In this document: positions 14,761-46,512 of the stretch, piece after piece | Layout: the number at the start of each line of letters is the position of its first letter | Numbering within the stretch: position 1 is the first letter of the stretch | Source of the DNA: Bacilli bacterium | GTDB taxonomy: Bacteria; Bacillota_I; Bacilli_A; RFN20; CAG-826 | Direction: 5' to 3' | Assembly (NCBI GenBank): GCA_022482735.1 | Contig: JAKVOO010000001.1 | Span: 838,837-902,836, forward strand | Length of the DNA: 64,000 nt | Notes under the pieces: model-generated | Databases searched by the model: none | What the model was told of the DNA's origin: nothing | The model's input: the letters and a program-made list of their open reading frames with translations, nothing else | Position numbers and translations under genes: made by a program

Positions 14761-14836
14761 TATTGTTTTCCTTTCCGATATTTGGTTTATGCAATAATAA
14801 ATCCCTTTTTATTGTTATTTTTCCAATGTTATCCTC

Positions 14837-16582
14837 CTAATGTTTTTCCATAATTTTTTTGATAGTTGAAATATCAACTTTGACCTTGCGATCAATCGTA
14901 ACCAATCCATTTTTTTCCTGTTCAACATCACTAAATTGGGTGTAGCAGAAACCGGATAAATAAGGCAAATCATAAATAACCTCAATCAACTGCCGGTAGC
15001 GAGTGTAAAACTCTTCAATGCCATCGGTGGCGCCGCCATATCCCCATCCATCCGCGGTATCCTTTTTCAAGGCAGCTCCGCCAAATTCTGAAAAAATAAA
15101 TGGCTGTCCTTCATACTTGTATCCATCTGCCAATAAATTGCGCATCGACAATGAGGATGTTTTTCCGCTCATAACTAAATTAATATCCTTATAAAAACTC
15201 AAAAGTTTATCCGCCGATTGTTCATAATTATGAATAGTAAGAATATCGCTTTTTGTATGTTCCCAACCGTCGTTGCTTATTGCCGGTCGATAAGGATCAA
15301 ACGCTTTGGTTAATAAGTAAAGTGCATCTACAAAACTCTGTTCTAATCGATTTTCACTGATTTCTCGTATCCCCCATGATTCATTGAATAATACCCAAAC
15401 AAATATGGAGGGATGATTATAGTATTGATGGAGTATTTCCATCCATTCCTTAAGAACATTGCGATTGGCTTCAAGATTGAAAATATGGGGGGATGGCATC
15501 TCGCACCATACAATAAGTCCCAATTCATCACATAAAGCAAGAAATCTCTCATCAATGATTGTTTGATGAATTCGAATACCGTTGAATCCCAACTCCTTCA
15601 ATAAAAGAATATCTTTTCGAGCGCTCTCTAAGTCAGGCAAAGTCATATTGCTTAGTGGCCAATAAGCCTGGTATAAGCAGAGTTTAGAATAAAAGCTAAA
15701 GCCGTTGAGCAACAATTGTCCCTGATGAGCTCGATACTCTCTAAATCCAAAATATGAATCTACTTTGTCTTCTACTATTTGATCTTCACTAAGTGTCAAT
15801 TTGACATCATAAATCTTCGGCCTATCTGGATGCCAAAATTCATTTTGAAAAGAAAGATAAGGGCTTGCCAGTTCGATAACAATTTTCCCCGATGGATATG
15901 CTAAGGAAGTTATAACCCTGTTGGTGGCTATTCCCTCAAATGATATCTCACTACTCAAAGTAAGACCCGGATGAAAGTTATCAATAACATATTCAATTTC
16001 AACATTCATCTGCTCAACACGGGGGGTAACTTTTATTTCCCTAATCCGGGTGAAATTAATTCTTTCTAACCATACTGACTTCCAAATACCGCTGGCTTCC
16101 TTATACCAGCAACCAAAATTATCATTCATCCACTTTTGTTTGCCTCGGGGCTGAGCGACATTATAAGAGTCAAATGTCCGAACTACCAATTTGTTAACTC
16201 CCACTACCATCGCCTGATTAAGACATAGAGAAAAACGCGCATATGCCCCTTCATGACTGCCGATAAATTGGCCATTTAGATAGACGTCTGCCCGGTAATC
16301 AACCCCTTCAAAATTAATCATTACATCGTGTAGAAAATCATCTTTACTAATCGTGATTTCGCGCTGATACCATAAAACATCAACGCGTTTCTTTTGATTA
16401 ATTCCACTGAGCGGGGTGGAATAAACAAAGGGCACCTTTATGGTTTGACTTGCGTTAAAACCACGATAATAGCCTTCCTTTAAGCCTATATTTCCCTCAT
16501 CGAAAATAAATTCCCATTCTCCATCCAAAAGTTCGAAATTTTCACGTCTTAGTTGCGGGCGTGGATAACTGCTATTAATCAT
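14837..16582 (-). CDS. GH2-family glycoside hydrolase, intact 581-aa paralog of 734..2468.
   Basis: N-terminal segment 'WYQREI...FEGVDYRADVYLNGQFIGSHEGAYARF' matches the beta-glucuronidase sugar-binding domain. Acid/base 'VLFNESWG'. Nucleophile 'IFSEFGG'. Confidence 0.85.
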   Translation of the reverse strand: MINSSYPRPQLRRENFELLDGEWEFIFDEGNIGLKEGYYRGFNASQTIKVPFVYSTPLSGINQKKRVDVLWYQREITISKDDFLHDVMINFEGVDYRADVYLNGQFIGSHEGAYARFSLCLNQAMVVGVNKLVVRTFDSYNVAQPRGKQKWMNDNFGCWYKEASGIWKSVWLERINFTRIREIKVTPRVEQMNVEIEYVIDNFHPGLTLSSEISFEGIATNRVITSLAYPSGKIVIELASPYLSFQNEFWHPDRPKIYDVKLTLSEDQIVEDKVDSYFGFREYRAHQGQLLLNGFSFYSKLCLYQAYWPLSNMTLPDLESARKDILLLKELGFNGIRIHQTIIDERFLALCDELGLIVWCEMPSPHIFNLEANRNVLKEWMEILHQYYNHPSIFVWVLFNESWGIREISENRLEQSFVDALYLLTKAFDPYRPAISNDGWEHTKSDILTIHNYEQSADKLLSFYKDINLVMSGKTSSLSMRNLLADGYKYEGQPFIFSEFGGAALKKDTADGWGYGGATDGIEEFYTRYRQLIEVIYDLPYLSGFCYTQFSDVEQEKNGLVTIDRKVKVDISTIKKIMEKH

Positions 16583-16585
16583 AAT

Positions 16586-19050
16586 TTATTTAACTCCTGT
16601 AATTTTTAAATCCTTATAGTATGATTCGGCCGATATCGAATATAATCCAACCATACCATGGGTAAAAGGATCGGGATCGGTATATTCAAAAGCATATTCA
16701 CCATCAAAGTAAACTTTAATATTGTTGCCTTTGCATATCGCTCGCATTTCGTGATAAACATTAAGTGTAAAGTCGCCCGTTAGCGAGGCAACGGTCATTC
16801 CGTTATAATTCATCCGCTCCATCACTAGTTGCATGTTATTAAAGGTGACAAGATATCCCTCGGCACATTCGTTAACTTGCCCACTCATAATGGAAGGATT
16901 GAGTGTGCGCAACATAATTCCCGCCGATGCTCCATTGCTTGAATCCATCGTTATTTTAACTTTGACACTTACTTCATAATCGGTCATTCCTTCACTACCG
17001 AAAAGAAGCATATTATTACTTCCCGCTTTTGAGTAATGGGCCTGTTCCTGCTCATCAATTTTCCATAACGTCATATATTTAGAACCCTGACTCACATAGT
17101 CCGACAAGTCGTTTTCAAAATTGGGAGAAAATTCACTATCGACAAAGGTATTGTAATAAAGACTTTCATACTTACCTGATACCAATTCGAATTTGATTGT
17201 ATGCAATCCCTTAGTTAAAGGAAGCTCCAAAAGAAGGTTTTTAATATAGGTTAAATTTTCTTCATAACTGCCATAGTTGTTTGCAAAATTCGCTCCTGGA
17301 AGTTCAACTAGATATGGTAAATTGTTATCAATTTGAATAGTTATTTTGCTTCCAATCGAAGCCATTGAATAAGTGTTCTCGATACCATAGAATCCATCTT
17401 CAAGAACATCGATAGGGAAAACGATTTTATCTTTACTCTTGCTGAGACGAACTCCATTAGCTTCGGAATATATTAGACGATCATCATTAATATCGTGGTC
17501 TAGTGTATATTGACTATCAATTGTAGAAATGTCCTTTAAGTAATCAGTTGCAAACCAGTCACTTCCAACAATTTTCGCATCATCGCTCTGACTTGAGTCA
17601 AATGCCGCATTGGCAAATGTTGTGGTTCCAATTGATGATTGTTCCATTCCACCGTAACCGATCTTTCCTTTTAAGATTGTTTCAGAAATGGTGCTGTCAA
17701 TTTTTGTTAGATTATCGAATGCCACTTTAAGTCGTTGATTACCATAGCTTAAACGAAGTGTGTGCAGTTGCGTAAAATCAAATTCTCCAATTAAACTTCC
17801 TTGGGCTACAAGGACTTGATTGTAGTAAACGTTGATGCTTTTCCCATCAATTGTTGCGTAGCCACTATTAGTACCATCCACTCCAAAAAGGAATTTGCTA
17901 CTGCCATCCGACTTTATATCTTTAAAGTTATATTCGACCGAAAAGGTATCCGCCGTTGCTAATGATGAATAATAACTTCCGTTACTTTCTTCAAGCGAAC
18001 CTTCCTTTTCTCCCAAACTAGTATTATCTGAAAGAACGTAAAATTCCGGCATCATTGGAACCATCGCTCCTTGATAAGTCGGGCCTAAAACATTCATTCT
18101 CGTTCCCGAAAAAGTTAAACGGTTGATATTGAATGATCGAACTGGACCCGAAGCTGAATCCAAATTGTGGTATGCAATATAATAACTATCCAAATTGGGC
18201 CCCAGTACTGTTGAAGAATGACCTAGCCCGTTCTGCTCGCCCATACTGGATAGCAATAATGAATTATTGCTTGGATATTCAAATCCAGTCCGGGGAGAGG
18301 AGGAAAAGGAATAATCAACTCGGTATCCGCGCGACTTAACATGATTTCCCGTATAGGTAAGGAAATAATTATCATCATGTTTTATCATGTATGGGCCTTC
18401 TGTCCATTTTACTAACGGAGAATAGAGTTCTTCACCACTAGTGTTATCAATTTCGGTTGGAGAATTCATCTCATAGGAAGTTATCGCCCCATCGCCAGCC
18501 GCCATAAAATACATTTTTTCATCATCATCAATAAATACACTGCCATCAATTGAAAGACCAATGTTAGAAGTAACAGCCCTAAACTCACCAAATGGTTGGC
18601 GATCAACCGACTTAAAGATGTAATGCCCTTTACCATCCGGAGAAGAGTACATATAAAAGTCACCATTCCAATAAATAACTTCAGGAGCGTAAGCAGTATG
18701 AAGACCTGTTGTTGATCCATCAGCTTGGGTAAGAGGATACTCACCTAAATAACTATAGTGAATAAGATCATGTGACTTCCACACCCGATAGCCATATTCA
18801 AAATTTTTGGTGGAAGCATATAAATAGTACTCACCGTTAAATCGCATGACATAAGGATCGCCGATTCCATAATTACTCCATTGGTCGGGAATATTTCCTC
18901 ACCAAATATGTTGTCATATCGATCGCGCTCTTGTAGCTGATAATTTACTTCTGAGAAACCTTTTAAATTTTTCATATCATCTTTCCCTCCACATGAACTG
19001 AGCATCAACACAATCGGAAGGACCGTTAATAGAATTTTTGTTTTTTTCAT
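16586..19050 (-). CDS. GH43-family multidomain lipoprotein with a C-terminal LamG/DUF1080-like repeat. One frameshift near 18890..18900 separates the signal-peptide ORF 18745..19050 from the body 16586..18847.
   Basis: MKKTKILLTVLPIVLMLSSCGG then 'NIFGEE'. Shifting frame gives 'NIPDQWSNYGIGDPYVMRFNGEYYLYAS' (classic GH43 N-terminus). WTEGPYM acid. C-terminal domain '...GMVGLYSISAESYYKDLKI'. Confidence 0.8.
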
Positions 19051-21855
19051 ATGGCAACTCCTTTAGCAATTTGGCTATAAATTGTTCCTTGCCCATTAGC
19101 ACGAATGCCGTAACTTTCGCCCGTCAAGCGATTTAAATCCTTATAGGAAATTAACTTATTATCATTTAAATACCCATCGATGGTCTTCCCATTCCAAACA
19201 ACTTTTAGACTGTATTGATTGGCTAATTGATAGGCGGAAATACTAATCTTAGTTAATTCAGAATAAGTGCCATCAACAATTTTGCTTAAGACAAGATCGC
19301 CATTAATCGATATAAAATAGAAATAATACGATACGCCGCTTTCCCAAAAGTAGGTTTGATTATTAGTGGAAAGACCAAATATGAGCCCATTGTCACTAAA
19401 AGATGTTGCTTGAAGATTAACTGCGATAAAACTTCCATCATTAATGAAAGTGTCGCTGTTATTTACAAGAATGGAATAAGCAGAAGAGGCAACATAACTA
19501 TTATCATTTTTAGTGAAATCACCACTTGCGATATCGTAGCCAACGATTGTGTCATCAATTGGGGGAAGTGATAGTTGATCGCGAATTAAATCTCTTATTA
19601 GCTTATAGGCCCCGCGATTAAGATGCAGTCCATCGGCAAAATAACCATTAATATATTGATTTTCGCTATCTAAGAATAAATTTGCCGTATCGATAAACTT
19701 GATGTTGGCACTGGCTGTTGCTAGTGATGATAAATAACTATCAATTTCATCGATGCTCGTTTTATATTGATCACGCATTGGACACTTGTGGATTCCGATG
19801 ATGACAACAACCAAGTCGGGCATTTGCTCTTGAATTTGATTTATGAATAGACTGTAATTATTCTTAATTACTTGGGCGCTGGCTCCCATTGGCAAATCAT
19901 TAGTTCCCATATCAATAAATAGCGTTGAAGGATTGTATGTTTTTATAATTTCAAGCATCGATAACCAGTAGGTGGTTGTCGTTCCTCCAACTCCTAGATT
20001 TGTAACGCTGCCGACGCCATTAAGATCAATGCTGGCATTTGCCCATAGTTCCATAATTGAATCCCCAACAATCAAAGCATCTGTTTGATCATTAGTAAGG
20101 TTGGAGTTGCTATTTAAGGAGCTAAAAATTGTTCCTTTAAAAAGAGACTTAATTCCAAATTGATTACCACTAAGCGGATTCTCATCACGGAATAAAATCA
20201 GTAATTTGTTTTCAAAATAGCCTTTTATGAGGCCCTCCTCAAAAGAGACCTTTAAGTTGTATTGGCCTATTAACGCTATAACCCGCGGTTAAAAGACGAG
20301 TGGAGAGATTAGTGATGGTTCCATTTTCTACTCGATCAAGAACTAGCTCGTGACCGGTATTGATCATTAATTGATAATAACTGGCATTATTCTCATAGAA
20401 AGAATCGCTATTTGACGCTAATCCAAAGACGAGCCCGTACTGATTGAGTCGAAGGGCAACCGCATCGATACTTAAGGTGCCTCTATCTAAAGTAGCATCA
20501 CTTTTTATCATCAGTGATGATTGCGCTGTAGCGACATAGCCACCATCGTTTTTATATCCACCGCTAACCGTATTAAAACCGGAAATAGCTTCGCCTGGTT
20601 CATCGTTCGTATCAACAATTGTTGATTCACTGGTAACAAGAGGACTAAAAGTGACTCCTTCTGCTCCTGCTCGTAATCCAATTCGTGTCCCTGTAAGAAA
20701 TGAACTGTCCGTATAAGTAATATAGACCGTGTCGTCTATCAGCCCATATATCGTATTGCCTACTACAACCACCCTCAAATTAATCGTTTTATTGGTCGTA
20801 AAACTGGCGACATTAGATGAAACTTGTATCGTATTCCACGTTCCATTTACCACCTTACCCAGAAAGGCATTACTGTCGCGATTGATAAAGAAGAAATAAT
20901 ACGATGCTCCGCTTTCCCAAAACAATGCATCCGTAGCTGATAGGCCAAATACAATGCCATTATCGGAGAAACTGGGTGTATTCATCGTTGCTGTAATGGT
21001 TCCTTGATTGAAACCAACCTCTGATAAAGTCATCAATGAATTTGCACTACTCGATGTATAGTTTCCATCATTGTTTTTAATAAAAGTTCCACTATTGATC
21101 ATATAATTATCTATCTCCTCGGTTTGGACTCCCGTTTGATTAATTGCCACATATGTATTAGGAATTTGCGGATCAGGCGTCCACCCAAACCAATCTGATG
21201 TCGTCAAATTGGTCGTCTTATTCCGACAACCAAAAGCAATGCCAACGGTCGAGGCTTGGTCAAAGCCAAACGTTTCATAAGGTAAAAATAATTCTACCGA
21301 CCAAGAGATATCATCGTCGGCATCATTATTGAGAGTGCCATCAATGCTGACCGCATAATCAACAACCCCACTCCAAGGTCCCCACCATTTGCCCCCGCCA
21401 ACTTGAAGCATGGCGTACCCTTCCGGATTAATTAAGAACTCATAATCATCAGTTTGCGGACCATTGCCTCCATCATGTTTTGTATCAATATAAAATTCGA
21501 CATTGTCGCTATTAATAACAAATTCTGAATCAGAGTAATTTGTTGAAGCGCTGATAAATTGATCTAATAATGTAAAACCGACGGTCAATCCTTTTTCGCC
21601 CCAAAATATTTTAGAAGAAACACGGTTGTTTTCTCCAAAATGACAATTAAAAATATCGGGATCGCTCCATTCTTCCTCATCAAGAACACCATCGATTTTT
21701 AAATCGCTAGCTACCATATTTCCTGGATACGTAAAGTCGCTATTGCCTGAAGACTTATCATTTTGACTTGCATAATCGCTCGGGTTAATTCCACATGAAC
21801 TTAATGCCAATAGTCCCCCGGCTAATAAAATTACCCAATTAAAGTGTTTTTTCAT
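19047..21855 (-). CDS. Multidomain surface lipoprotein: CBM9-like domain, two LamG/DUF1080-like repeats, an SGNH/GDSL esterase domain (putative acetyl-xylan/carbohydrate esterase) and a third LamG-like repeat. A 1-nt frameshift at ~20245..20252 splits it into ORFs 20239..21855 and 19047..20075.
   Basis: Lipobox LALSSCG. 'IDGVLDEEEWSD...DNVEFYIDTKHDG...DDYEFLI' is CBM9-like. Reading across the frameshift, repeat 2 continues in-register ('...RPIQLK|VSFEEGLIKGYFENKLLILFRDENPLSGNQFGIKSLFKGTIF'). The SGNH frame has no stop back to 20289. SGNH blocks: GDS (IVGDSIME), GTND, DGLHLN. Confidence 0.75.
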
Positions 21856-21869
21856 TTTCAGCGCTCCTT

Positions 21870-22772
21870 TTAATTGTCTTTTGAACTTGAAAGCATAAAA
21901 GTATTCACAAAATATTTTTGAAACACAACATAAATTGCAATCGTGGGAATACTCGATAAAACCGAGCCCGCCATAATCGTCGGAAGATTCTTCAAGGTTC
22001 CACTTCCGGTTTGATTATCCAAATACTTAATCATTACTTGAATAGTTTTATTGTTTAGAGTTTGAAGGTAAATGTCGGGTCCAAAGACATCATTCCAAAT
22101 TCCCAAGAACCAAAATATTACTTGAGCGGCAATAGCTGGACGAACTAAGGGTAGGAATATATTCCAATACAAACGGAAAAATCCACATCCATCCACCTCC
22201 GCCGCTTCGTAGACACTATCTGGAATACTTAAAGCATATTGGCGAAGAAAGAACATCATCGAAACATTGCCGAAAAGTCCCGGTAAAATTAATGGATATA
22301 AAGTGTCGACCAATCCTAGATGAGAAAAAGCACTAAATTGAGGGGTCAAAACTGTAATATAGGGAACCATCATTGTCGTAAGTACCATATAAAATAGGAA
22401 GTTTTTACCTCTAAAACGAAGTCGAGCAAAAGCAAAGGCTGCCATTGTTGTCGACAATGTTCCAAACGATATTACAAAGGCCTCGATAATTAGGGTGTTA
22501 ATGAAACCTCGGGCCAAAGGAATTATCGTAAAAATATCAACATAATTACTGAGGGTAAATTCTTTGGGAAATAGATAGAAGGCTAAGTTGTTTACTACTT
22601 CATTTCCTGACTTAAATGACATTGAAAGCATATATAAGTAAGGAAATAGCATTAAGAAAGCAACAAATAAAATAATGAACAGAACGATAACTTTAATCGT
22701 ATAAAAGGAGGCACTATAATGTTTTTTATTTGTTTTTGGCGCTATATTTTTAGCAATATTAACTGAGTTCAT
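21870..22772 (-). CDS. Carbohydrate ABC transporter permease (MalG-like).
   Basis: Multi-TM protein with the EAA region 'YEAAEVDGCGFFRLYWNIFLPL'. Confidence 0.85.
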   Translation of the reverse strand: MNSVNIAKNIAPKTNKKHYSASFYTIKVIVLFIILFVAFLMLFPYLYMLSMSFKSGNEVVNNLAFYLFPKEFTLSNYVDIFTIIPLARGFINTLIIEAFVISFGTLSTTMAAFAFARLRFRGKNFLFYMVLTTMMVPYITVLTPQFSAFSHLGLVDTLYPLILPGLFGNVSMMFFLRQYALSIPDSVYEAAEVDGCGFFRLYWNIFLPLVRPAIAAQVIFWFLGIWNDVFGPDIYLQTLNNKTIQVMIKYLDNQTGSGTLKNLPTIMAGSVLSSIPTIAIYVVFQKYFVNTFMLSSSKDN

Positions 22773-23719
22773 TACGCGCGGGCTCCTTTTTTTAATTTCC
22801 GAGAACTAAAATTTTTCCGCCCACTTCCCACGTGGAGAAACTTAAATAAGAACAATGTCACAATTAGTAACCCAACAAAAACAAAGAGACTGCCCGCGCT
22901 AACTAATCCATAATTACCCTTTTTCATCTCATTCCATAGATAATAGACGATAGTATTGGCACTAGAAGAACTAACAATTATATAGTTATCAGCAAAGGCT
23001 AATATTCCCCCGATTACCGAAGTAATAAGGACATAAAAAGTTGTTTGTTTTACTAATGGGATAGTTATTTTAAAAGTTTTATAAAATAGATTAGCTCCTT
23101 CAATATCGGCGGCCTCATATAATTCATGAGGTATATTCTGCATGGAGGCAAAATAGAGCAACAAGGTGCCGCCTATTCCTCCCCATACGCCTTTGATTAT
23201 AAGAGTTATCTTTACAATTCGAGGATCACTAAGCCAGAGAATATGCGTATTAAATATTTGATTAATTGCTCCGTAATCGGCATTAAATAACCATTTCCAA
23301 ACTAATCCAACGGCGATTGCCGAGCTGACTGCTGGAAGATAATAAATAATTAGATAAGGTTTCTTAATCTTGCAATACTTGGAATTGATTAAAGTGGCTA
23401 ATACGAATGATAAGACCATTCCCACTGGGATTCCCATCATTAAATATAGGGTGTTAGTAATTGATTTAATAAAATTGGGATCGGCAAACAACTCTTGAAA
23501 ATTGCCCCAGCCAATATAATTGCCCGCCCCAGGATTGTAATTGAAATCGGTCAATTCATGGAAAGAGGCAAATATAGAATAAAGAAGAGGAATGAAGGTA
23601 AACAAAAGAAAGCCGATCACCACTGGAGCTACAAATAAGTAGCCCGCCATTTGCTCCTTAAATCGTCGATTGCTAACTTTGATTTTTAAACGGTTAAGTA
23701 TATTCATCATTATTACCAA
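22772..23719 (-). CDS. Carbohydrate ABC transporter permease (MalF-like).
   Basis: Multi-TM protein with 'YEAADIEGANLFYKTFKITIPL'. Confidence 0.85.
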   Translation of the reverse strand: MVIMMNILNRLKIKVSNRRFKEQMAGYLFVAPVVIGFLLFTFIPLLYSIFASFHELTDFNYNPGAGNYIGWGNFQELFADPNFIKSITNTLYLMMGIPVGMVLSFVLATLINSKYCKIKKPYLIIYYLPAVSSAIAVGLVWKWLFNADYGAINQIFNTHILWLSDPRIVKITLIIKGVWGGIGGTLLLYFASMQNIPHELYEAADIEGANLFYKTFKITIPLVKQTTFYVLITSVIGGILAFADNYIIVSSSSANTIVYYLWNEMKKGNYGLVSAGSLFVFVGLLIVTLFLFKFLHVGSGRKNFSSRKLKKGARA

Positions 23720-25236
23720 GCATATTTGGAAGTCGTTTTATCTAAAATCGTTTGACACCGGTCTTCTAAGCCTGATAGAAATTCACTATTAATTCGACTA
23801 TTAGTATTCCAATCCCAAACATTGAGATGACCTCCGTATGAAGAAGTTAACGACCAAACTCGAAACAGTTTATAGTTATCATCGGATGATTCCCACATTT
23901 CATCATACCAATCTGCGTTATAGGTGTAGGCTTGAGGCCGCCTTTCACTATTGGCCATCATATCAAGATATACTTGGCGATTTAACGGGCGATTATAACC
24001 CATAGTTGCATTTTTAGGGTCATTAATCGTTGCCTCCATAAATTCGCCATTAGCCATATCAATTAGATTCGGCACCGCTTGTCCTAATTGATAATTTATT
24101 TTTTGCGCCACCGGTGAAGCGGTTAAAAATTCGGCCAATTTATACGCGCCTTCTGGATCTTTACTACCTTTATAACAGGAAATACCCACTGATCCCAAAA
24201 AGGATTTTGATGATGCTCCACTGCGATATCCATCCTGCCAATTATCAAGATTGCCAGTGGCATTGGGAACTGGTGTATATAGAATATCCCAATCAAAATT
24301 GCACTCCCATAGTTCTGGTGTGTCCCAAGCTCCAACGAAAGCGGCTCCTGCTAAACCACTGGAAAAGCGTTGTAAGCCCGCTTGTGAGGCTTGACCTTCC
24401 GCCGTTGTCATTACTTGGTACTTGTTGGATAAGTCAGCAACAAATTGAAGTGATTCGGCAAAGTTATTATTATCAATGGTAACTGTTTTATTGCTAGCGT
24501 CTAAAAAGCGTTGTCCCATTGAAGCCATGGCGCTTTCTAATGGATAATGAGTAATACCTACAATAGAATTAGAGTCACTTAACGACCCTTCCTTTATGTC
24601 TTGGCAGAAAGCAACAAATTGTGCCCAAGTCATCGCCACTTTATCATTTAAAGTTTTCGTGGAAGGATTATATCCATATTGACCACTAACATCACTGATA
24701 ATTGTGACCCCTTTGCTTTGAACAAGCGTTTTGTTATAAGCCAAAACATTAGGTCCTAAATCCTTTGGCAAAGCATAGATATCCCCCGTTCCTAATCTTT
24801 TACTTGCCGTGTCATATCGATAGGCATCAATTCCTTCATTCCAAATATTGTCAATTGACATCGCACTTGATTGTTCAATATATGGGGTTAAATCCATCAT
24901 AATATCCGATGAGTTGATCCATTGAACAAAGTTGATATCCGGCATATAGAAGACATCCGGCATATTACGGGTGTTGTTCTTATAACTGCCTAAGGTCGTT
25001 ATGTAATTATCGGAAGTAACAGAAGAATATACGACATCATATTGAGGATATTCCTTAGTAAATTCCGCGATCATTGTTTTAAAAATTTGTTGCTCGGCAA
25101 CTGACCCCCAGCCAAAAAACTTCAGTACTGATTTTTTGTCACCGCTCGAATCAGAAGTTCCTCCGCAAGCTGAAAGTACTAAGGATAAAAACATTGTCGC
25201 CATAAATGAAAGGCTGATTTTTTTAGTTTTGCGCAT
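23713..25236 (-). CDS. Extracellular solute-binding lipoprotein (sugar ABC transporter).
   Basis: MRKTKKISLSFMATMFLSLVLSACGG lipobox. About 500 aa, SBP family 1 size. Confidence 0.8.
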   Translation of the reverse strand: MRKTKKISLSFMATMFLSLVLSACGGTSDSSGDKKSVLKFFGWGSVAEQQIFKTMIAEFTKEYPQYDVVYSSVTSDNYITTLGSYKNNTRNMPDVFYMPDINFVQWINSSDIMMDLTPYIEQSSAMSIDNIWNEGIDAYRYDTASKRLGTGDIYALPKDLGPNVLAYNKTLVQSKGVTIISDVSGQYGYNPSTKTLNDKVAMTWAQFVAFCQDIKEGSLSDSNSIVGITHYPLESAMASMGQRFLDASNKTVTIDNNNFAESLQFVADLSNKYQVMTTAEGQASQAGLQRFSSGLAGAAFVGAWDTPELWECNFDWDILYTPVPNATGNLDNWQDGYRSGASSKSFLGSVGISCYKGSKDPEGAYKLAEFLTASPVAQKINYQLGQAVPNLIDMANGEFMEATINDPKNATMGYNRPLNRQVYLDMMANSERRPQAYTYNADWYDEMWESSDDNYKLFRVWSLTSSYGGHLNVWDWNTNSRINSEFLSGLEDRCQTILDKTTSKYAW

Positions 25237-25265
25237 ATAAACACCTCTTGCACCCTAATAGTAAT

Positions 25266-25283
25266 GTGGTAATCGCTTACATT
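25266..25283. promoter_or_regulatory. cre-like / LacI-type operator candidate (reverse strand ATGTAAGCGATTACCACA) upstream of ABC operon 2.
   Basis: Matches the cre consensus TGWAANCGNTNWCA at 13 of 14 positions. Lies 30 to 47 bp upstream of the SBP start (25236). Confidence 0.4.
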
Positions 25284-25394
25284 CAACGTCAAATTTTCAA
25301 TTTTTACAAATTAACGTTATTAATTCGAAAATATTCGAAATTCGCTTGCAACCCGAACCAAGTAGTGATTAACTGAAATTAAAAGAGGGATTAT

Positions 25395-26326
25395 ATGCGG
25401 AAATTAACTTTAAATCTAAATGACGACAATATCTTAGAAAAGATTGGCGATTCGTTCTCCTCACCCATTCGGCGTAAGATTTTACGTTTGGTGGCCAATA
25501 AATCCTATTCTATATATGAGATTGCTCAAGAATTGAATTTATCAATGTCAACGACCTCCTTTCATATTAAGATTTTAAAGGAAGCGAAAACTTATTAAAG
25601 CTATACCTTCCCCCTCCAAAAAAGGAAATGAGAAAAATGTCTCAATTGAGTGTGAATCAATGACCATATTTGTTAATGGTGATTCGGAAATAAGTAATTT
25701 AAGAAAGATAGTCACTATTCCCCTTGGCTCTTTTATCGATTACTGACATTACTCCCCCCTGTGTAATTTGCACTAAAGAAATGGCTCTTCAACCTATTGA
25801 TGATCGCAATGTTTTTTTGTCACCCTCCCGTATTCAGGCCCAATTAATATCTTTTTATAAAGGGCATATTACTTTTCCTATTCCCCTTGATAAAGAAGAA
25901 GGAACCCAATTGGAATCGATAACTATTTTCATGGAACTTTGCTCTGAATGTCCCAACTACAACAATAGTTGGAAAAGTGATATTACTTTTTGGATTAATG
26001 GTCAAGAAATTGCCACCTACCTTTCACTAGGAGATTACGGCGATCGCCGTGGTGCTTACACTCCTTCGTGGTGGCCATCTAGTTCAACTCAATATGGCAT
26101 GCCCGTCAACCTCCGTATTGATATGGATGGCACTTATATAAATGGTGCCAAAGCTAGTTCGATAACCATTAATAGCCTTGGAATAAGAAACAATGAAGTT
26201 CTCCATTTTACTCTGGGAGTGAAGGATGATGCAAAATACGTTGGAGGCATTAACCTTTTCGGAAGAAATTTTGGGGATATAAATGAAGATATTACCGTGC
26301 AAATTGCCTTTGAAAGAAAAAAATAA
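25395..26326 (+). pseudogene. ArsR-type wHTH regulator with a ~200-aa C-terminal domain of unknown function, paralog of 42920..43853. Disrupted by at least 2 frameshifts into ORFs 25395..25598 and 25724..26326, with an out-of-frame homologous segment between them.
   Basis: HTH 'SSPIRRKILRLVANKSYSIYEIAQELNLSMSTTSFHIKIL'. The C-terminal domain shares 'ELCSE.PN.N.WKSDITFW.N..E..TY.SLGDYGDR.G..TP..WPS..QYG' and '..F..G.KDDAKYVGGINLFG.NFGD' with the paralog. The gap segment 'IVTIPLGSFIDY' aligns to 'LVEVPIGSYSAF' in a different frame. Confidence 0.65.
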
Positions 26327-32802: not shown

Positions 32803-34290
32803 TTACTTAGATTCTTTTAGAACAAGAACGTTGATTGACTGGCCTTTTAAGGTAATTTTTTTCTCATCATTAATCGGTTCATCTATGGGTAATATTTGAT
32901 TGGGATAATCAAATGTGTTTTTAGCATGCAGTTGGCCACTTATTGAAATGTGTTTTCTAACAATTCCTAAATTACCATTTAAAATAACGTTAAGTTCACT
33001 ATCTTCAGGTGACTTATTTAAAATAAAAACACGATACTCATTTTCGTTCTTAACAACTGCACAATGAAGACTCTTAATGATTCCATAATGTGTATTGATT
33101 GTTTCAGAATCTACTATCGGCTTGATAGCAACTCCTTCAGAAAAAATTCTTGCAAGTTGAAATGGATAGTATATTGTTTGCTTAACCATTCTACCATTGT
33201 TTTCAGTCATAATTGGAGCAATAACGTTTACTAGTTGAGCTAAACAGCTTATTTTCACTTTGTCGCAATTATTAATAATAGAAATAATCAGTCCGAAAAA
33301 AGTTAGCGCATCTTCAAAGTCAAAGGTATTTTCTACTCTGCGGGGTCCTACTGTCCATTCATCTTCGTAATTGTTGTTGTAGACTTTCTCTTCCTTAATC
33401 GGTTTTTGATGCCATATATTCCATTCATCTAAAGAAAGAAAAACGTCATGTTTGCTTCTTTTCAATGCTTTGACGTATTTAATAACTGAAAAAGCTTCGT
33501 CAATATATTTTTCTAAATCAATATGTGATGACAAGTAATCAGCTGTTGAAAAATCTTTTTCTAATGAATAATAACGATGAATTGATAAAAAATTAACATC
33601 ATCATAAAGATGTTCAAGAATAACTCGGTCCCAAACTGGGTATGTCGGCTGCCAAGGTCCGGATGATCCTGAAGCGATAAGCGAAATTTTGGGATCAATC
33701 CATCTCATGACTTTAGCTGCTTCGTGTGCCTTACGACCATATTCATCCGCCGTAAGGGAATTGATTTGCCAAGATCCGTCCATTTCATTTCCTAAACACC
33801 AATATTTAATATTAAATGGGGATAAGTCACCATTTTTAATTCTTAAATTACTATACTCACTGCCACTGTTTATATTGCAATATTCCACCAACTCGCCGGC
33901 CTCTTTGGGTGTTCCAGTACCCATATTTACTGCCATCATTACATCAAAATTGGCTAGTTTGGAGTAATGCATAAATTCGTGAAGCCCAATTTCATTGGGC
34001 TCTATTTGTCTCCATGCCAAATCCAATTTTGGCTTACGTTTAGTGCCAATTCCGTCCTTCCAATTATATCCGGAGACAAAATTTCCGCCTGGATAACGTA
34101 CTAGTGGGAGGTTAAGTTCTTTTATACTAGCTAATACATCTGTGCGAAATCCCTCTTTAGTGATTTCTGAATGAGTTGGTTCATAAATGCCATGATAAAC
34201 ACTACGCCCCATATGCTCAATAAATGAAGAAAAAAGCAGTGGGGATATTTCAGAAATAATGTAGTCTTGATCTATTTTAATAGTGGCCAT
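32803..34290 (-). CDS. GH51 alpha-L-arabinofuranosidase (intracellular).
   Basis: N-terminus 'MATIKIDQDYIISEISPLLFSSFIEHMGRSVYHGIYEP' with 'YPGGNFVSGYNWKDGIG' and 'WCLGNEMDG' (catalytic Glu). 495 aa, no signal peptide. Confidence 0.9.
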   Translation of the reverse strand: MATIKIDQDYIISEISPLLFSSFIEHMGRSVYHGIYEPTHSEITKEGFRTDVLASIKELNLPLVRYPGGNFVSGYNWKDGIGTKRKPKLDLAWRQIEPNEIGLHEFMHYSKLANFDVMMAVNMGTGTPKEAGELVEYCNINSGSEYSNLRIKNGDLSPFNIKYWCLGNEMDGSWQINSLTADEYGRKAHEAAKVMRWIDPKISLIASGSSGPWQPTYPVWDRVILEHLYDDVNFLSIHRYYSLEKDFSTADYLSSHIDLEKYIDEAFSVIKYVKALKRSKHDVFLSLDEWNIWHQKPIKEEKVYNNNYEDEWTVGPRRVENTFDFEDALTFFGLIISIINNCDKVKISCLAQLVNVIAPIMTENNGRMVKQTIYYPFQLARIFSEGVAIKPIVDSETINTHYGIIKSLHCAVVKNENEYRVFILNKSPEDSELNVILNGNLGIVRKHISISGQLHAKNTFDYPNQILPIDEPINDEKKITLKGQSINVLVLKESK

Positions 34291-34360
34291 AAATGTTTTC
34301 CTTATAAATGTTCGATAAAACTTCCAGCAAAAAAGTTATTGCTGGAAGTTTTTTTAATGT

Positions 34361-36094
34361 TTAGGCAATGTAGAATAGTGGTCTTGACATGTTGAAACTA
34401 CCAGCATAAGTTCCATCGGGTATGGTTGTAGTAGAACAAATATAAAGTTCAATTTTAGCAATATCTTGGGTAACTTTTTGAGTAAAAACGTAAGTGTTTG
34501 ATTCTTCAACCTCAAAACTTCTAGAATAGATTTCGGTTTCTGATGCGTTTTTAAGTTTAATAAAAATATAGATGGTACTCGCCCCAGTATTTTTAAACCG
34601 CATAGCCATCAAATTGGCAGAATCCAAGCTATGATAGACTGTGGTTTTAATATTTTGCCAACTTCCTTTCGTTGCATTAGTATAACTCACCCCTACTGAT
34701 TGATTGGCTAAACTAGTAAGTGTATAGGTGGTATTCCCTGACCAAGTGGGTGCGTTTGTTAGGTTAATGAACCGCGGGTTGGTGACTATAAATGATCCAC
34801 TGGATGCTTCAGTAGGAATAGAACTGCTATATGAAGCAATATATAGTTCAATTTTGGTAACTGCACTAGTAACTAACTTTCGGAAGCTATAAGTTTCATT
34901 GGGATTAAAACTAATTGTCGACCAAGAAAATTGCTCATTACCGGATTGATCAGCTTTCAGTCTACTAAGAACTACTTGGACGTAAACGGGTGTAATGCCG
35001 GTATTTACAAAATCAAGTGCTACCGCATTGGATGTATTAATATCTTGAGTTGTTGCAAGATAAAGATTTTTCCATGATGAAGCGCCAATACTAGAGTAAG
35101 AAACGCTCATACGCCCAAAGTCAACTGCTGAATGAACATAATCGCTAGAACCGCTCCACGGTTTAGCTAAATCGACAAATTTCGGACTTGAAACAATAAA
35201 ACTTCCACTAGTGGCTTCATCCGGAACAGCCGAGCCATATGAGGCGATATAAAGTTCAATTTCTGTTACTTCTACGCTTAAAGCTTTTCGATAGTTATAG
35301 CTCTGTTCTGGTGCAAAATGAATTTCTTCCCATGAGAACTGATTGTTTGAGCCGTCTTTAAGAACAATTTGGACATATGCCGCATTGTTGCCTGTATTCG
35401 TAAAATCAAGCGCCAATCCACTTTCACTTGATATATCGTGAGAAACTGAAGTAAATAATCGACTATACGAGGTTTTTACAACTCCCGAATAGGTTACTTG
35501 CGTATTTCCATAGTCTAAATTGCTTGTTTCATAAATTGATGTTCCCTGCCAAGAATAATATACTGGCGCGCTGGGTTCACTGCATTCATGAATAATGGCG
35601 ACATTATTTAATTCTGAATCTTCTAATGCTTCAATTTCAAAATAACGGCTGTCACTTTCAAAATTAGTTATACCATCTACAACGACGGGAGTTACTTTTA
35701 AATTATCGTAATCATACCCCTCTTTAAGAAGCAGACTTCCAGAAGCGGCAATGGATATTGACTTAATGCCACCAATTGGTGAATCAATAGCATTGCGTAA
35801 CGTCCCGGAAGTTTTTAATTCGATATGCCCTAATGATGATTCAATGGCATTATCATATTCCATAATTACTGGATTACTCAAATAGGTTAATACCTCATAT
35901 GAATTGGAAGATGGGGTATTAGTTAGGCCTAAGGCTTGATTATTATGATCAAGTGTAATTCGATAATCCGTATAGCCAGAGTCAGCTTTTAAAAGAATAT
36001 TTGATGTATTATTCACTAGTGGCCACACAATAACCGAAACAGCTAAAGCAACACTTATAAAAAGATAGCGATAAAGTGACTTAATTTTTTTCAT
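34361..36094 (-). CDS. Secreted/anchored protein with three tandem ~125-aa beta-repeat modules of unknown family (putative glycan-binding).
   Basis: N-terminal signal-anchor. Three repeats with the recurring landmarks 'W.GS..Y', 'NTG....YVQ(I/V)VL', 'FSW..I.F....(S/T)Y..RK', 'IELYI(A/C)S' and 'SGSF'. Confidence 0.6.
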   Translation of the reverse strand: MKKIKSLYRYLFISVALAVSVIVWPLVNNTSNILLKADSGYTDYRITLDHNNQALGLTNTPSSNSYEVLTYLSNPVIMEYDNAIESSLGHIELKTSGTLRNAIDSPIGGIKSISIAASGSLLLKEGYDYDNLKVTPVVVDGITNFESDSRYFEIEALEDSELNNVAIIHECSEPSAPVYYSWQGTSIYETSNLDYGNTQVTYSGVVKTSYSRLFTSVSHDISSESGLALDFTNTGNNAAYVQIVLKDGSNNQFSWEEIHFAPEQSYNYRKALSVEVTEIELYIASYGSAVPDEATSGSFIVSSPKFVDLAKPWSGSSDYVHSAVDFGRMSVSYSSIGASSWKNLYLATTQDINTSNAVALDFVNTGITPVYVQVVLSRLKADQSGNEQFSWSTISFNPNETYSFRKLVTSAVTKIELYIASYSSSIPTEASSGSFIVTNPRFINLTNAPTWSGNTTYTLTSLANQSVGVSYTNATKGSWQNIKTTVYHSLDSANLMAMRFKNTGASTIYIFIKLKNASETEIYSRSFEVEESNTYVFTQKVTQDIAKIELYICSTTTIPDGTYAGSFNMSRPLFYIA

Positions 36095-36163
36095 AATTTA
36101 ATCCTTTCTTTTTGATATTTAAATTAATTTATTAAAATATAGAACATAAAAACAATAATCTTC

Positions 36164-38425
36164 TTATTCGGTTAAGTTTGAAAAAACGGGTTCAGTTAGT
36201 TCAAGTGATCCTGATGTCATTTCACCTCCTTCACCATTATAATTTTCAGCATTTGTCCAGATCATGATAGTTGAAACTTGACGTAATGTTGTAAATACTA
36301 TTTCTTTGGATTCGGAAACTCCCAGGAAAAAAGACGCATAAGTAATCTCCCCTTCTGCATCATATGCCTTAATGTAATAAAAGTTATCTTGACTACTTTT
36401 ATTTGTCAGGGAAAAAGAAATTGTGTTAAAAAGAGAAAAATCATAGTTGATGTCAGCGGATATATTTTGATTCCAGTCGCCGTTAGCAATTGAAGAATAA
36501 TTAAATGTCGTGAAATCTTGGGAAACAATTTGTGAATAACTACTGGTCGCTTTCCATGAACTTACCACATTGGCAAAAAGAGGATTACTCATAATAAAAC
36601 TTCCCGCATATGTTCCAGATGGAATTGACGATGTTGAACATATATAAAGTTCTATTTTCGTAATTTGGCGATCAACAATTTTAAAGTAATCATATGATTC
36701 GCCTTCCGACATTGAAAACTGGTTCCAAGCAAACTGACCACCACTTGCCGTCAACACAACTTGAATATAAACTGTTGAATCACTATTGTTAGCAAAAGAC
36801 ATCTCAACCGAATTTGTCTCTGGATACTGATGAATAACGTTAGCATATATATTGGACCAACTTGCAGACGTTATTTCACTATAATCGACCTTGACGGTTC
36901 CGTTTTGAAGATCGATTACTTGATATTTACTACTCCCATTCCAAGTTGGAGCAGGGGTCTCATTGGAGAAAATTGGGTTAGTTATTCTAAATGATCCAGC
37001 CGTCAAATCATTCGCTTCCCCAACATAAGAATGCGCATTAACAAAAACAACCATTTTAGCAATTGCTTCGTTTAAAACAAGTTTAATTACTTTCGAGGCG
37101 TTGGCATCAAGAGAGAAACCACTGGCTGCAACCTCACCTCCAGATTGATTTTGAGCTTTTACATAAAAGGAAGTACTTATATCGCCTAAATTTTCAATTG
37201 TAACTGAAACGACAATATAGTCTGGATAATTATTTCCGACAATTGCACTGATGTTTTGATCCCAGTTTCCATTGGACAAATCGGAAAAAGTAAATATTGA
37301 TTCTCCTGTTAATTTCTCATTGATAAATTTTCCTGTTCCGCTCCACATTGAGAGTGTGCCTGGATCTACATGCTTTAATTCATAACTTGAAATTTTAAAG
37401 GTCCCAGAATAAGTTCCGGCGGGAATACTATTAGTTGAAGAAACAAAAATAACAATTCTTCTAATAGCTTCACTCAAAGGAATAGATACTGCTTTTGTTT
37501 CATAAGCGTTAAGAATGATATTATCCCAAGTTAAACTGCTGCTATCATCACTGTTGCTACTTGCTACTGTTTTTATACTCAAATAGACTATCGTTGCGCC
37601 TGTATTTTCAAACATGAAAGCAACTGTATTTTGTGTTGGAAAATCCATACTTTCAATTGAAGTTGAAACATATTGCCATGAGCCTTTCGCCACCCCGGTA
37701 AAAGAAACGTTTGTTTCGTTTCCTAAAGAGGTAACCATCATTGCGCCACTACCAGACCATGGTGACGCAGATACAAGTTGCGAATCATCTGGCTTTGTGC
37801 TTGAAAACCAAGTTTCATGTATTGTTATAACTCCGCTATTAAGCGCGCCTTTTAGTCCTGGCTCTGCGATAAATTCAATTGAATCAACCGCATCAAGCAT
37901 CCATGCTCGCTCAGGATTGATATCATAGGAATAAGTATTAATTCCATTTTCAAGAGAAATAATCCGATCTGGACCAATAATAAGGTTAGAGGCAGTTTCA
38001 TCCATTATTCTAAGCAAAACTGTTTTGCCAACTTCGCCCGATAAAGTAATGTTTAAATACCGAAAACTTGTCGACATATTTTGTATTTCTGCAACAAGCG
38101 GGCAATATCCATCTAGTGAACCCGATTTCACATAACGAACCGCTGTAGAACCATCATTTTCTACAGTGACTTCCGTATATACAGTTTCGGATTCCGCCTG
38201 CCATTTAGCAAAATAAAAATCGCCAGTTCCTTCGTATATATTGGTAATTGGATTGCCAATTAGCGATGAGGTATCTGAACCGATTGAAGTCACTATCTCC
38301 GATGATGTTACTGTGTTTGAATTATCAGTAGATAATAATGATGAACTATTCGAAACATTACTACAGGCGACCAACAGTACCGAGAAAAGACCTAATATTG
38401 AGCTTGCAATCCGACTTTTCTTCAT
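36164..38425 (-). CDS. Large surface lipoprotein built from about six copies of the same ~125-aa beta-repeat module as 34361..36094.
   Basis: Lipobox LLVACSN. Repeats contain the 'IELYICSTSSIPSGTYAGSFIMSNPLF' and 'NTG..IVYLSIK' type motifs shared with the neighbouring gene. Confidence 0.6.
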   Translation of the reverse strand: MKKSRIASSILGLFSVLLVACSNVSNSSSLLSTDNSNTVTSSEIVTSIGSDTSSLIGNPITNIYEGTGDFYFAKWQAESETVYTEVTVENDGSTAVRYVKSGSLDGYCPLVAEIQNMSTSFRYLNITLSGEVGKTVLLRIMDETASNLIIGPDRIISLENGINTYSYDINPERAWMLDAVDSIEFIAEPGLKGALNSGVITIHETWFSSTKPDDSQLVSASPWSGSGAMMVTSLGNETNVSFTGVAKGSWQYVSTSIESMDFPTQNTVAFMFENTGATIVYLSIKTVASSNSDDSSSLTWDNIILNAYETKAVSIPLSEAIRRIVIFVSSTNSIPAGTYSGTFKISSYELKHVDPGTLSMWSGTGKFINEKLTGESIFTFSDLSNGNWDQNISAIVGNNYPDYIVVSVTIENLGDISTSFYVKAQNQSGGEVAASGFSLDANASKVIKLVLNEAIAKMVVFVNAHSYVGEANDLTAGSFRITNPIFSNETPAPTWNGSSKYQVIDLQNGTVKVDYSEITSASWSNIYANVIHQYPETNSVEMSFANNSDSTVYIQVVLTASGGQFAWNQFSMSEGESYDYFKIVDRQITKIELYICSTSSIPSGTYAGSFIMSNPLFANVVSSWKATSSYSQIVSQDFTTFNYSSIANGDWNQNISADINYDFSLFNTISFSLTNKSSQDNFYYIKAYDAEGEITYASFFLGVSESKEIVFTTLRQVSTIMIWTNAENYNGEGGEMTSGSLELTEPVFSNLTE

Positions 38426-38511
38426 ATGTAATACTTTCCTCCTTGTTTATTAAAAGTTTCTGACTGAAAACCAGAAATAGAAATTTGTTTTAAACCTTTG
38501 CAACATCGCAT

Positions 38512-39672
38512 TTATTCACCATACTTATCTAAATCTATAAAAGACCAAAATGCTTGCTTCGGCTCATGAAATTCATCAAATAATAAAGGCCAATTTTTTC
38601 TTCCGGAAACAGGATTGTTGTCAAGCCACGTAATGTCATCGGCAACCCCCCACATCGTTACCCCAGTTACTTTTCCATATGCGTCATTTTCTGGATGGGA
38701 GTATTTGCGAGCAATACCCATTATTTGACCATACATTGAAGCCTGTATTTTTGATAGTGATTCCGGAATTTCATCATAGGTAATTGGATATGTTGAGTAA
38801 GGATATATGGAAACATCCAATTCCGTTATTTGAACGTCTAATCCCCGCTCGACAATTGAACGGATGGTATTCTCAAATTCATCAATATTAAATGATCCTA
38901 AATAGTAATGAGCTTGAAGCCCAACTCCTTCAATTGGTGTTCCGTCTAAAGCAAATTGGTCAAGCATTTTTAATAAGGCCTCGCGCTTATTAGGGTAGTT
39001 GAGACCATAATCGTTGTAGAATAACTTAAAATTATAATTATTTTCTTGACGAACCCGATAGGCTTCTTTAAATGCCGATTCTATATAGTCAATTCCACAA
39101 ATAGCAAATAAATCTCCACCCGTTGCATCATTAGTCTCATCTCCTGTCCGATAAAAATCGCCACTTTCAACTTGCGCCAATGAAGGATAGTCACGCAAGG
39201 CTTCGTTTACAACATCCCAAACATAAACATCATCTTTAAAATGGTTTATTACGCCTTCAACATGATTTTCAATCCGAGAAATAAGCTTTTCTTTAGATGG
39301 ATTATCCGATAAAACATAACGCGGCAAAGATTTATACCAAACCAAAGTATGACCACGTACCCCTTTGCCATTTTCTTTTGCATACTCAACCATCGGATCT
39401 GAAGAAGAAAAATCAAACTGTCCCTCTAACGGCTCAGTAATCGACCACTTTGCCTCATATTCTTGCGTAATGCTATTAAAATTCGGTAGCAAATCCTCAT
39501 AAAGAGAAATTTTATTTTCCGTCAAAGCCGCGCCAATAGGAAAGTAATTAGCATAGACATCTTTTAACAAAGGTACAGTTACTTCAGAACTAGATGATCC
39601 GTTGTTTGGGGTTGAACATGCCGTTAAAAGACAAAGTCCAAACATCATAAGAAAATTAAGATTTTTTTTCAT
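38512..39672 (-). CDS. GH10 endo-1,4-beta-xylanase lipoprotein.
   Basis: Lipobox LLTACST. GH10 motifs 'VRGHTLVW', 'WDVVNEA' (acid/base) and 'ITELDVS' (nucleophile). Confidence 0.9.
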   Translation of the reverse strand: MKKNLNFLMMFGLCLLTACSTPNNGSSSSEVTVPLLKDVYANYFPIGAALTENKISLYEDLLPNFNSITQEYEAKWSITEPLEGQFDFSSSDPMVEYAKENGKGVRGHTLVWYKSLPRYVLSDNPSKEKLISRIENHVEGVINHFKDDVYVWDVVNEALRDYPSLAQVESGDFYRTGDETNDATGGDLFAICGIDYIESAFKEAYRVRQENNYNFKLFYNDYGLNYPNKREALLKMLDQFALDGTPIEGVGLQAHYYLGSFNIDEFENTIRSIVERGLDVQITELDVSIYPYSTYPITYDEIPESLSKIQASMYGQIMGIARKYSHPENDAYGKVTGVTMWGVADDITWLDNNPVSGRKNWPLLFDEFHEPKQAFWSFIDLDKYGE

Positions 39673-39675
39673 TTA

Positions 39676-42743: not shown

Positions 42744-42919
42744 ATAAATGTTCCTTTGAGTAATTTTTCAACTATGTAACCGCTTCTTCAATAAAATGTT
42801 ACGCTGACCACTTAAAGCAAGTCAAGTAATATTTATTAAATGATGAATTTTTTATTAACATTCATATTTTGTTGAATTTTAACTTGATTGTTTCTATCCT
42901 TTGTGTAAAATAATGGTAT

Positions 42920-46505: not shown

Positions 46506-46512
46506 TAGATGA

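Follow-up and report, generated by a model that had tools for sequence, protein, structure and literature searches.

Here we describe two regulator genes, g1 and g2, that lie within a 64,000-nucleotide (nt) stretch of contig JAKVOO010000001.1 from a Bacilli bacterium (the window), each facing a glycan-utilization operon on the opposite strand (Table 1). Both encode an ArsR-type winged helix joined to a C-terminal domain of ~210 amino acids (aa), which is predicted to form a β-sandwich and recurs beside carbohydrate genes in a large protein family. We consider it rather probable that g1 and g2 are local one-component regulators that dock on a palindrome as dimers and sense a sugar held by the β-sandwich, probably acting as repressors.

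Two paralogs with a winged helix and a large C-terminal domain

An earlier note on this DNA, made from the sequence alone, had proposed that g1 and g2 are paralogs with an ArsR-type winged helix and a shared set of conserved blocks, and that both are transcribed divergently from genes for sugar-binding proteins. All of this is borne out. After repair of the reading frames, the two proteins align over 308 aa with 41% identity and 64% similarity (expectation value (E) 2e-90), a resemblance far above chance that identifies them as paralogs. Each of the quoted blocks was found in both repaired copies: ELCSE(C/A)P, WKSDITFW(I/L)N, SLGDYGDR(R/M)G..TP, QYG, and KDDAKYVGG(I/V)N(L/I)FG.NFGD. In a 61-sequence alignment of the family, most of the invariant columns fall within these blocks. 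The genes that face g1 and g2, here SBP1 and SBP2, both encode proteins matching the Pfam binding-protein family SBP_bac_1.

The N-terminal winged helix matches Pfam HTH_5 with 44.2 bits in g1 and 30.9 bits in g2 (cut-off 22), and HTH_20 above its cut-off with 35.4 and 33.6 bits, respectively. Its recognition helix reads STTSFHIKILKEAK in g1 and STISTQVKKLSEA in g2. In a Foldseek comparison with the PDB, the predicted winged helix superposes on CzrA, SmtB, SrnR, and CadC with a root-mean-square deviation of 1.0–1.8 Å over ~75 residues (probability 1.00), and the first ~95–100 residues find their best structural match in PH1932 and Phr (for PH1932, E 4.7e-6 at 29% identity). The NCBIfam metalloregulator model NF033788 gave 42.1 and 39.8 bits, under its cut-off of 55, and direct reading of residues 20–95 of g1 and g2 revealed no cysteine in the DNA-binding part, including at the helix 3 position where a canonical CVC motif would be. 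Judged by this score and by the cysteine-free DNA-binding part, the N-terminal domain is therefore not a canonical metal sensor. The TrmB helix-turn-helix model scored in g2 alone, with 15.7 bits (E 0.013), which is below its cut-off of 25.6, and the Pfam scan gave no match to the TrmB C-terminal sugar-binding domain in either protein.

The remainder of each protein, residues ~100–310, had no match in Pfam or NCBIfam, where both repaired proteins matched only N-terminal helix-turn-helix models. Sequence and profile searches of the PDB with the C-terminal domain gave no relevant match, and Pfam CBM_6, CBM_35, and similar families were not matched at E values up to 1. The earlier note had called the domain novel. 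That description holds for Pfam, NCBIfam, and PDB sequences, but not for the family as a whole, which had previously been noted under the name ArbA (see below).

AlphaFold2, run with the family alignment, predicted the full-length protein with a predicted local distance difference test score (pLDDT) of 91, and the C-terminal domain alone with a pLDDT of 90.5 and a predicted template modeling score (pTM) of 0.88; the domain is all-beta. Its best fold match in the PDB is a carbohydrate-binding module (CBM) of family 36 (7ay3; E 1.3e-4), with a template modeling (TM) score of 0.58 normalized on the target. Other weak fold neighbors are CBM6E, the CBM35 region of cycloisomaltooligosaccharide glucanotransferase (CITase), the carbohydrate-binding domain of BcsB, Cry toxin domain III, malectin, and a legume lectin. 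The model looks like a jelly-roll-type β-sandwich of the general CBM or lectin kind, with large insertions and without a close solved relative. Structure prediction of the domain had been suggested as a check in the earlier note; it returned these weak CBM and lectin neighbors, and no match to a characterized non-sensory family. The predicted fold is compatible with sugar binding, which is not the same as proof of it.

A large family linked to glycan loci

A profile of the C-terminal domain retrieved 1177 clusters at 50% identity, 801 of them at E values up to 1e-10. In every full-length match among the best 150, the domain lies at roughly residues 100–310 of a protein of ~300–360 aa, and the architecture of the family is fixed. 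Public databases give these proteins generic names such as "ArsR family transcriptional regulator" or "helix-turn-helix domain-containing protein."

To place the family in its genomic context, one genome per species was scanned, yielding at least 597 loci, of which 80 were retained. All 80 are labeled Bacillota except for a Sphaerochaeta metagenome-assembled genome, a record titled Parasutterella excrementihominis, and an isolate listed as an unclassified "bacterium"; they include genomes of Clostridia, Lachnospiraceae, Christensenellaceae, Paenibacillus, and Bacilli. A regulator open reading frame could be called at 78 loci, which form the basis of the context counts. At 56 of these 78 loci, a sugar-type ATP-binding cassette (ABC) binding protein or permease is encoded within 5 kb of the regulator. 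A binding protein, a permease, or a glycoside hydrolase (GH) of family GH2 is found among the three genes on either side at 63/78 loci and directly adjacent at 44/78. By Pfam, the nearest neighbors comprise 27 binding proteins, 18 GH2, 6 GH43, and 2 GH127 enzymes, plus CBM-bearing enzymes. Gene order is clade-specific; for example, the regulator may precede a binding protein and two permeases on the same strand, be divergent from a binding protein and two permeases, or be divergent from a GH2 gene. The association with carbohydrate loci that the earlier note had proposed to look for across genomes was thus found.

In the literature, we found no experimental study of any family member, with the limit that subscription journals were not covered; there was only a prediction from 2021 and a passing annotation in Lactobacillus rossiae. 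The prediction concerns ArbA (Athe_1102 / Csac_1556) of Caldicellulosiruptor, which comparative genomics identified as an ArsR-family regulator of the arabinofuranosidase gene abfA, from which its own gene is divergent (Rodionov et al. 2021, PMC8579813). ArbA was described there as a likely repressor and as the first ArsR-family factor to be tied to the use of carbohydrates. The operator predicted for it, TTATTTTA-N8-TAAAATAA, covers the promoter spacer and -10 element, and ArbA sites were placed over promoter elements or 5' untranslated regions, which was interpreted as repression (PMC8579813).

The upstream-site pattern of arbA gave no match in a metagenome scan; the supplementary alignment text is inconsistent. 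With a pattern that spans the ribosome-binding site and the start codon of arbA, we retrieved L089, a metagenome contig on which a gene for a 505-aa GH51-like arabinofuranosidase is divergent from that of a 304-aa protein. Aligned with g2 over 303 aa, this ArbA-like protein shows 35% identity (E 1e-63), and it contains every one of the family blocks. Because the homology extends over the full length, we assign g1 and g2 to the ArbA family.

ArbA therefore shares family and architecture with g1 and g2 and is likewise divergent from a hemicellulose gene. It differs in that the C-terminal domain was not described in the prediction and in that its neighbor is a single GH51 gene rather than an ABC transporter operon. 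The ArbA type of operator is also absent at g1, where TTCGAA-N4-TTCGAA is found, a different sequence at a different position. The predicted operators thus differ between clades of the family.

Family members also vary in their cysteines. Every sequence of the 61-sequence alignment has Cys123 and Cys183, and ELCSECP, with a CxxC motif at C183/C186, is the form found in most members; in g1, residues 123, 183, and 186 map to window positions ~25760 and ~25945–25955. One of these cysteines is lost in g2 (ELCSEAP, with Ala at 186) and two in the ArbA-like protein (EISSEAP, with Ser at 183 and Ala at 186). Because of these losses, a metal or disulfide site, if any exists, would be inessential to the family.

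Candidate operators and promoters

Upstream of g1 lies a 20-base-pair (bp) palindrome that is the only perfect copy of its kind in the window and is our candidate operator. Allowing at most one mismatch, TTCGAA-N4-TTCGAA has 12 matches in 1.18 Mb (the window plus the family loci), and for 9 of the 12, a regulator gene of the family begins no more than 160 nt downstream. The dyad TTCGA-N6-TCGAA occurs in 7 upstream regions, compared with 0.0 in shuffled sequences. Loci with a site of the TTCGAA type have one each, and a weight-matrix scan near the target operons added none. Within the window, matches with two mismatches occur at chance level. A second, weaker g1 operator at 25291–25312 was considered and is not claimed here, since only ~11/20 positions match by eye.

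The putative g1 promoter begins just past the palindrome. We read it directly from the sequence and treat it as putative because the promoter scan did not report it. Loci L010, L011, and L013 show a near-consensus TTGACA-17-TATAAT in a layout like that of g1, with a related, more degenerate element at the operator position, and L009 and L014 are similar in layout. At g1, g2, L009, L014, L015, and L019, 4–5 nt separate the end of the site from a downstream -35-like hexamer in the promoter of the regulator gene, which places the center of the site near -50. On the minus strand, direct reading indicates that the g1 site could overlap the spacer and -10 element of an operon 1 promoter, TTGCAA-17-TCGAAT.

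Members with the TTCGAA operator have in common the recognition helix ST.SFH.K.L, whereas g2 has STISTQVKKL instead. At the equivalent position, g2 is preceded by a diverged palindrome, part of inverted repeat I1, which we regard as a weak candidate: it is seen at one locus and has no weight-matrix support. At this one locus, helix and operator seem to have diverged in step between g1 and g2, and the g2 promoter is a consensus match in the promoter scan.

The intergenic region of g1 is ~97% identical to that of L005, a syntenic relative, compared with ~85% for coding DNA. For this reason, the entire 158 bp from 25237 to 25394 appear to be constrained, beyond the 20-bp palindrome itself. The same region contains a second regulatory candidate, TGTAAGCGATTACCA, which resembles the catabolite-control (cre) consensus. 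It sits between a possible operon 1 -35 element (TTGAAT) and -10 element (TACTAT). This cre-like site in the operon 1 promoter suggests that operon 1 may be under CcpA control on top of its local regulator.

The reading frames of g1 and g2 are broken

The earlier note had described both genes as frameshifted, and in the window sequence they are. Relative to L005, which is 85% identical and syntenic, g1 spans three frames owing to an extra G at the first and an extra C at the second of the insertions in Table 1. Relative to contigs L001 and L002, which are 98.6% identical, g2 has one extra G, which divides it between two frames. The breaks are also present in the GenBank annotation: exact copies of the 67-aa and 181-aa pieces of g1 are on record as MCH3976789.1 and MCH3976790.1, and an exact copy of the 243-aa piece of g2 as MCH3976805.1; the 73-aa 3' piece of g2 is MCH3976806.1 save for an alternative start codon. 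An alternative genetic code (TGA as Trp) was considered as the cause and ruled out, the breaks being changes of frame from single inserted bases when compared with relatives.

Intact versions of both proteins exist. Repaired g1 aligns without gaps to P0050, an intact database protein, at 95% identity, and repaired g2 is 100% identical to P0001, likewise intact. Whole 309-aa or 310-aa copies are present in several independent assemblies (P0001, P0270, P0271, P0273, P0278, P0283, P0284, P0290, and P0292). A sister contig of 1.478 Mb has an intact g1 and a g2 that is broken elsewhere, into 144 and 176 aa. All 13 of the 13 substitutions between g2 and L001 are synonymous, as follows from the identity of the two proteins. 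Given the intact copies in independent assemblies, the differently placed break in the sister contig, and the exclusively synonymous substitutions in g2, the frameshifts, though present in this sequence, are most likely assembly errors of a long contig rather than biology.

The opposing explanation is that g1 and g2 are true pseudogenes that are decaying along with other genes of the sugar loci, so that nothing is regulated here. Three single-base insertions do disrupt the two genes, and none of the inserted bases that we examined falls within a long homopolymer. Four further genes of the same loci are also frame-broken: a GDSL esterase (19047–21855), an ABC permease (40651–41445), a GH1 gene (43868–45254), and an FAD-dependent oxidoreductase (45241–46505). 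Against decay stand the identical or near-identical intact proteins of independent assemblies, the sister contig with its other g2 break and unbroken g1, and the synonymous pattern in g2, which fits long-contig assembly errors. Taken together, we judge decay in this organism to be quite unlikely.

The GDSL esterase is unbroken in L005, where it measures 935 aa. The window also contains unbroken genes, among them FeoA/FeoB, a DtxR-like gene, SBP1, and the permease genes of operon 1. Elsewhere on the same source contig, outside the window, the 186-aa fragment MCH3976425.1 (LKE36_02290) belongs to the 90%-identity cluster of g2. Because it clusters with g2 at this level and has a distant locus tag, it suggests that the source genome holds a further g2-like copy.

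Comparison with known regulators and carbohydrate-binding modules

The HTH_5 winged helix is common to g1, g2, and the ArsR/SmtB metalloregulators CzrA, SmtB, CadC, and ArsR. The latter measure ~100–120 aa, and their metal sites lie in helix 3 or helix 5, whereas g1 and g2 have no such motif, carry an additional domain of 210 aa, and reside in sugar loci. The archaeal ArsR-like proteins PH1932 (1uly) and Phr (2p4w) also have a two-part layout, with a helix-turn-helix followed by a second domain. However, these proteins measure only ~190–200 aa as a whole, their short C-terminal parts do not align with the β-sandwich, and they have no link to sugar use.

The nearest solved folds to the C-terminal domain are the β jelly-rolls of CBM36, CBM6, and CBM35 (7ay3, 1w0n, 8j3y, 3wnk, and 2w3j), to which it is only weakly similar (query-normalized TM score 0.37, identity ~10%). 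Compared with these modules, the domain of g1 and g2 is ~80 residues larger, cytoplasmic, and fused to a DNA-binding domain, while CBMs are normally found on secreted enzymes. In overall logic, g1 and g2 resemble TrmB, LacI/CcpA, GntR-AraR, and ROK-XylR, which likewise combine a DNA-binding domain with a sensor domain, are encoded beside the sugar operon that they control, and use a palindromic operator. The sensor folds of these regulators differ from the domain in g1 and g2.

Proposed mechanism and alternatives

In the mechanism that we propose, each protein would regulate the glycan-utilization operon divergent from its own gene, with g1 acting on operon 1 and g2 on operon 2. The regulator, presumably as a dimer, would bind a palindrome of ~20 bp between the two divergent transcription units. 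At the g1 locus, the palindrome would be AATTCGAAAATATTCGAAAT, which ends 4 nt upstream of its own -35 box. For g2, an altered recognition helix and a diverged palindrome at the equivalent position would prevent cross-talk between the paralogs. A sugar or oligosaccharide, either imported by the adjacent transporter or freed by the adjacent hydrolases, would then bind the β-sandwich and alter the affinity for DNA. The likeliest mode of action would be repression that is lifted by the sugar, although dimer binding, the effector, and the sign of regulation are inferences.

Several observations weigh against this mechanism. The fold matches are weak, with query-normalized TM scores of at most 0.42, identity of ~10%, and E values of about 1e-4, and β-sandwiches are widespread and serve many functions unrelated to sugars. 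Residues E181, E185, W193, D196, D214, R218, W227, Q233, N286, and D294 are near-invariant across clades whose linked enzymes differ. Such near-invariant polar and aromatic residues are therefore unlike a pocket of varied specificity, and a conserved interface or a common ligand would fit them equally well. A search of the domain for clade-specific positions gave no clear specificity patch. On the DNA side, the TTCGAA operator was found for just ~12/83 members, and its location upstream of the regulator's own -35 box fits activation too. Furthermore, at 15/78 loci the three genes on either side of the regulator include neither a binding protein nor a permease nor GH2, and g1 and g2 are both frame-broken in the sequence at hand.

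The conserved residues lend some weight to an alternative in which the β-sandwich is only an oligomerization or scaffold domain, as in PH1932 and Phr, and the signal is a partner protein (e.g., a transporter component) or a general metabolic cue. In structure, the N-terminal part is closest to PH1932 and Phr, which bear C-terminal extensions that mediate dimerization. The conserved surface residues are nearly alike in all clades regardless of the adjacent enzyme, and the search for a specificity-determining patch came out empty, as a scaffold would lead one to expect. Yet ~210 residues is large for a dimerization module, the fold neighbors are overwhelmingly CBMs and lectins, and the linkage of the family to glycan loci is tight and specific. 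We consider a pure scaffold unlikely. Sensing of a metal or of redox state in the ArsR/SmtB tradition, through C123 and the CxxC of g1 (C183/C186), seems very improbable. The DNA-binding domain is of the ArsR type, and both the invariance of C123 and C183 and the frequency of ELCSECP would agree with such a site, but the metalloregulator scores fall below the cut-off, helix 3 has no cysteine, g2 and the ArbA-like protein have replaced one or both residues of the motif, and the neighbors are sugar genes rather than metal genes. A sub-question within the sugar-responsive model itself is whether g1 and g2 could be activators that, in the presence of sugar, recruit RNA polymerase from a binding site upstream of -35. 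The spacing of the operator from the -35-like hexamer at the six loci named above speaks for this arrangement. Conversely, ArsR-family proteins are mostly repressors, the sites of ArbA were read as sites of repression, and the g1 site could overlap core elements of the operon 1 promoter, which leaves activation a fairly unlikely mode.

The sugar operons and their surroundings

The coordinates of the genes, domains, and candidate sites are given in Table 1. The earlier note had described the loci as xylan-utilization operons. This stands for operon 2, which is xylan-type (GH10 and GH51) and looks like a locus for arabinoxylan oligosaccharides; operon 1 holds GH43, GH2, and a GDSL esterase. The note had also assigned a LacI-type regulator to a third operon, in agreement with the LacI-type gene at 8751–9716 that we found near a third cluster of binding-protein and permease genes (4288–5592 and downstream).

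Table 1 Features of the g1 and g2 loci in the window
Feature	Position	Strand	Description
Regulator gene g1	25395..26326	+	309 aa after repair; insertions near 25586 and 25743
g1 ArsR-type winged helix-turn-helix	25452..25600	+	Residues ~20–69; Pfam HTH_5, E 1.7e-11, residues 23–68
g1 C-terminal β-sandwich domain (predicted)	25700..26323	+	~210 aa; no family assignment; homologous to the modeled g2 domain
g1 candidate operator	25322..25341	.	20-bp palindrome AATTCGAAAATATTCGAAAT; sole perfect TTCGAA-N4-TTCGAA in the window
Putative g1 promoter	25346..25374	+	-35 TTGCAA (25346–25351), 17-nt spacer, -10 TTAACT (25369–25374); begins 4 nt past the operator
cre-like site	25267..25281	-	TGTAAGCGATTACCA; operon 1 leader or promoter; conserved in L005
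SBP1, binding-protein gene facing g1	23713–25236		Pfam SBP_bac_1
Operon 1, divergent from g1	12362..25236	-	Binding protein, two permeases, split GDSL esterase, GH43 with LamG-like domain, GH2, 809-aa DUF6250 protein
Regulator gene g2	42920..43853	+	310 aa after repair; single G insertion at 43631
g2 candidate diverged operator	42859..42878	.	CATTCATATTTTGTTGAATT (ATTCA-N8-TGAAT); 5 nt upstream of -35
Putative g2 promoter	42884..42911	+	TTGATT, 16-nt spacer, TAAAAT
SBP2, binding-protein gene facing g2	41445–42743		Pfam SBP_bac_1
Operon 2, divergent from g2	32803..42743	-	Binding protein, frameshifted permease, second permease, GH10, 752-aa unknown, 576-aa unknown, GH51 arabinofuranosidase

A block of ~13.8 kb (32712–46503) containing operon 2, g2, the GH1 gene, and the FAD oxidoreductase gene is absent from L005, where its flanks lie ~330 bp apart. 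On the left, window positions 29524–32711 correspond to L005 12170–15360, and on the right, 46504–47710 correspond to L005 15687–16905. The block looks like an accessory island that was either gained or lost. At its right edge, a 334-aa DUF1508 protein with three repeats (46608–47612, minus strand) is conserved in L005.

Neither Pfam nor NCBIfam gave a match for three large proteins encoded within or next to the sugar operons, with lengths of 752 aa (36164–38425), 576 aa (34361–36094), and 596 aa (30012–31805). The 809-aa protein of operon 1 (12362–14794) has only weak DUF6250 and LamG-like matches and contains repeats similar to the ones in the GDSL protein. These large proteins may be uncharacterized glycan-active enzymes.

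Implications

What is known of sugar-operon control in Bacillota comes mostly from the LacI, GntR, AraC, ROK, and DeoR families and from two-component systems. The proteins g1 and g2 follow a familiar one-component sugar-regulator design with an uncharacterized, putative sensor domain. They belong to a family of 1177 clusters that is encoded beside genes for ABC transporters and for GH2, GH43, GH51, GH127, and GH10 enzymes in gut bacteria and biomass degraders, and for which there is neither a domain model nor a structure. Were the β-sandwich found not to bind sugars, this tight linkage to glycan loci would still call for an explanation.

A broader interpretation, which we offer tentatively, is that the ~210-aa domain may be a CBM-related cytoplasmic sensor of imported hemicellulose fragments. 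Together with the ArsR winged helix, it would form a major class of glycan-locus regulators, found mostly in Bacillota of the gut and of plant biomass (more than 1000 clusters), with one clade sharing a 20-bp operator and with paralogs of the same genome kept from cross-talk through matched changes in helix and operator. If the β-sandwich does bind sugars, it would represent a rare reuse of a module of the secreted-enzyme type as an intracellular transcriptional sensor. In that case, it would also improve the prediction of regulons for fiber use in gut Clostridia and Bacilli, and it could provide compact sugar-responsive switches with an operator already defined.

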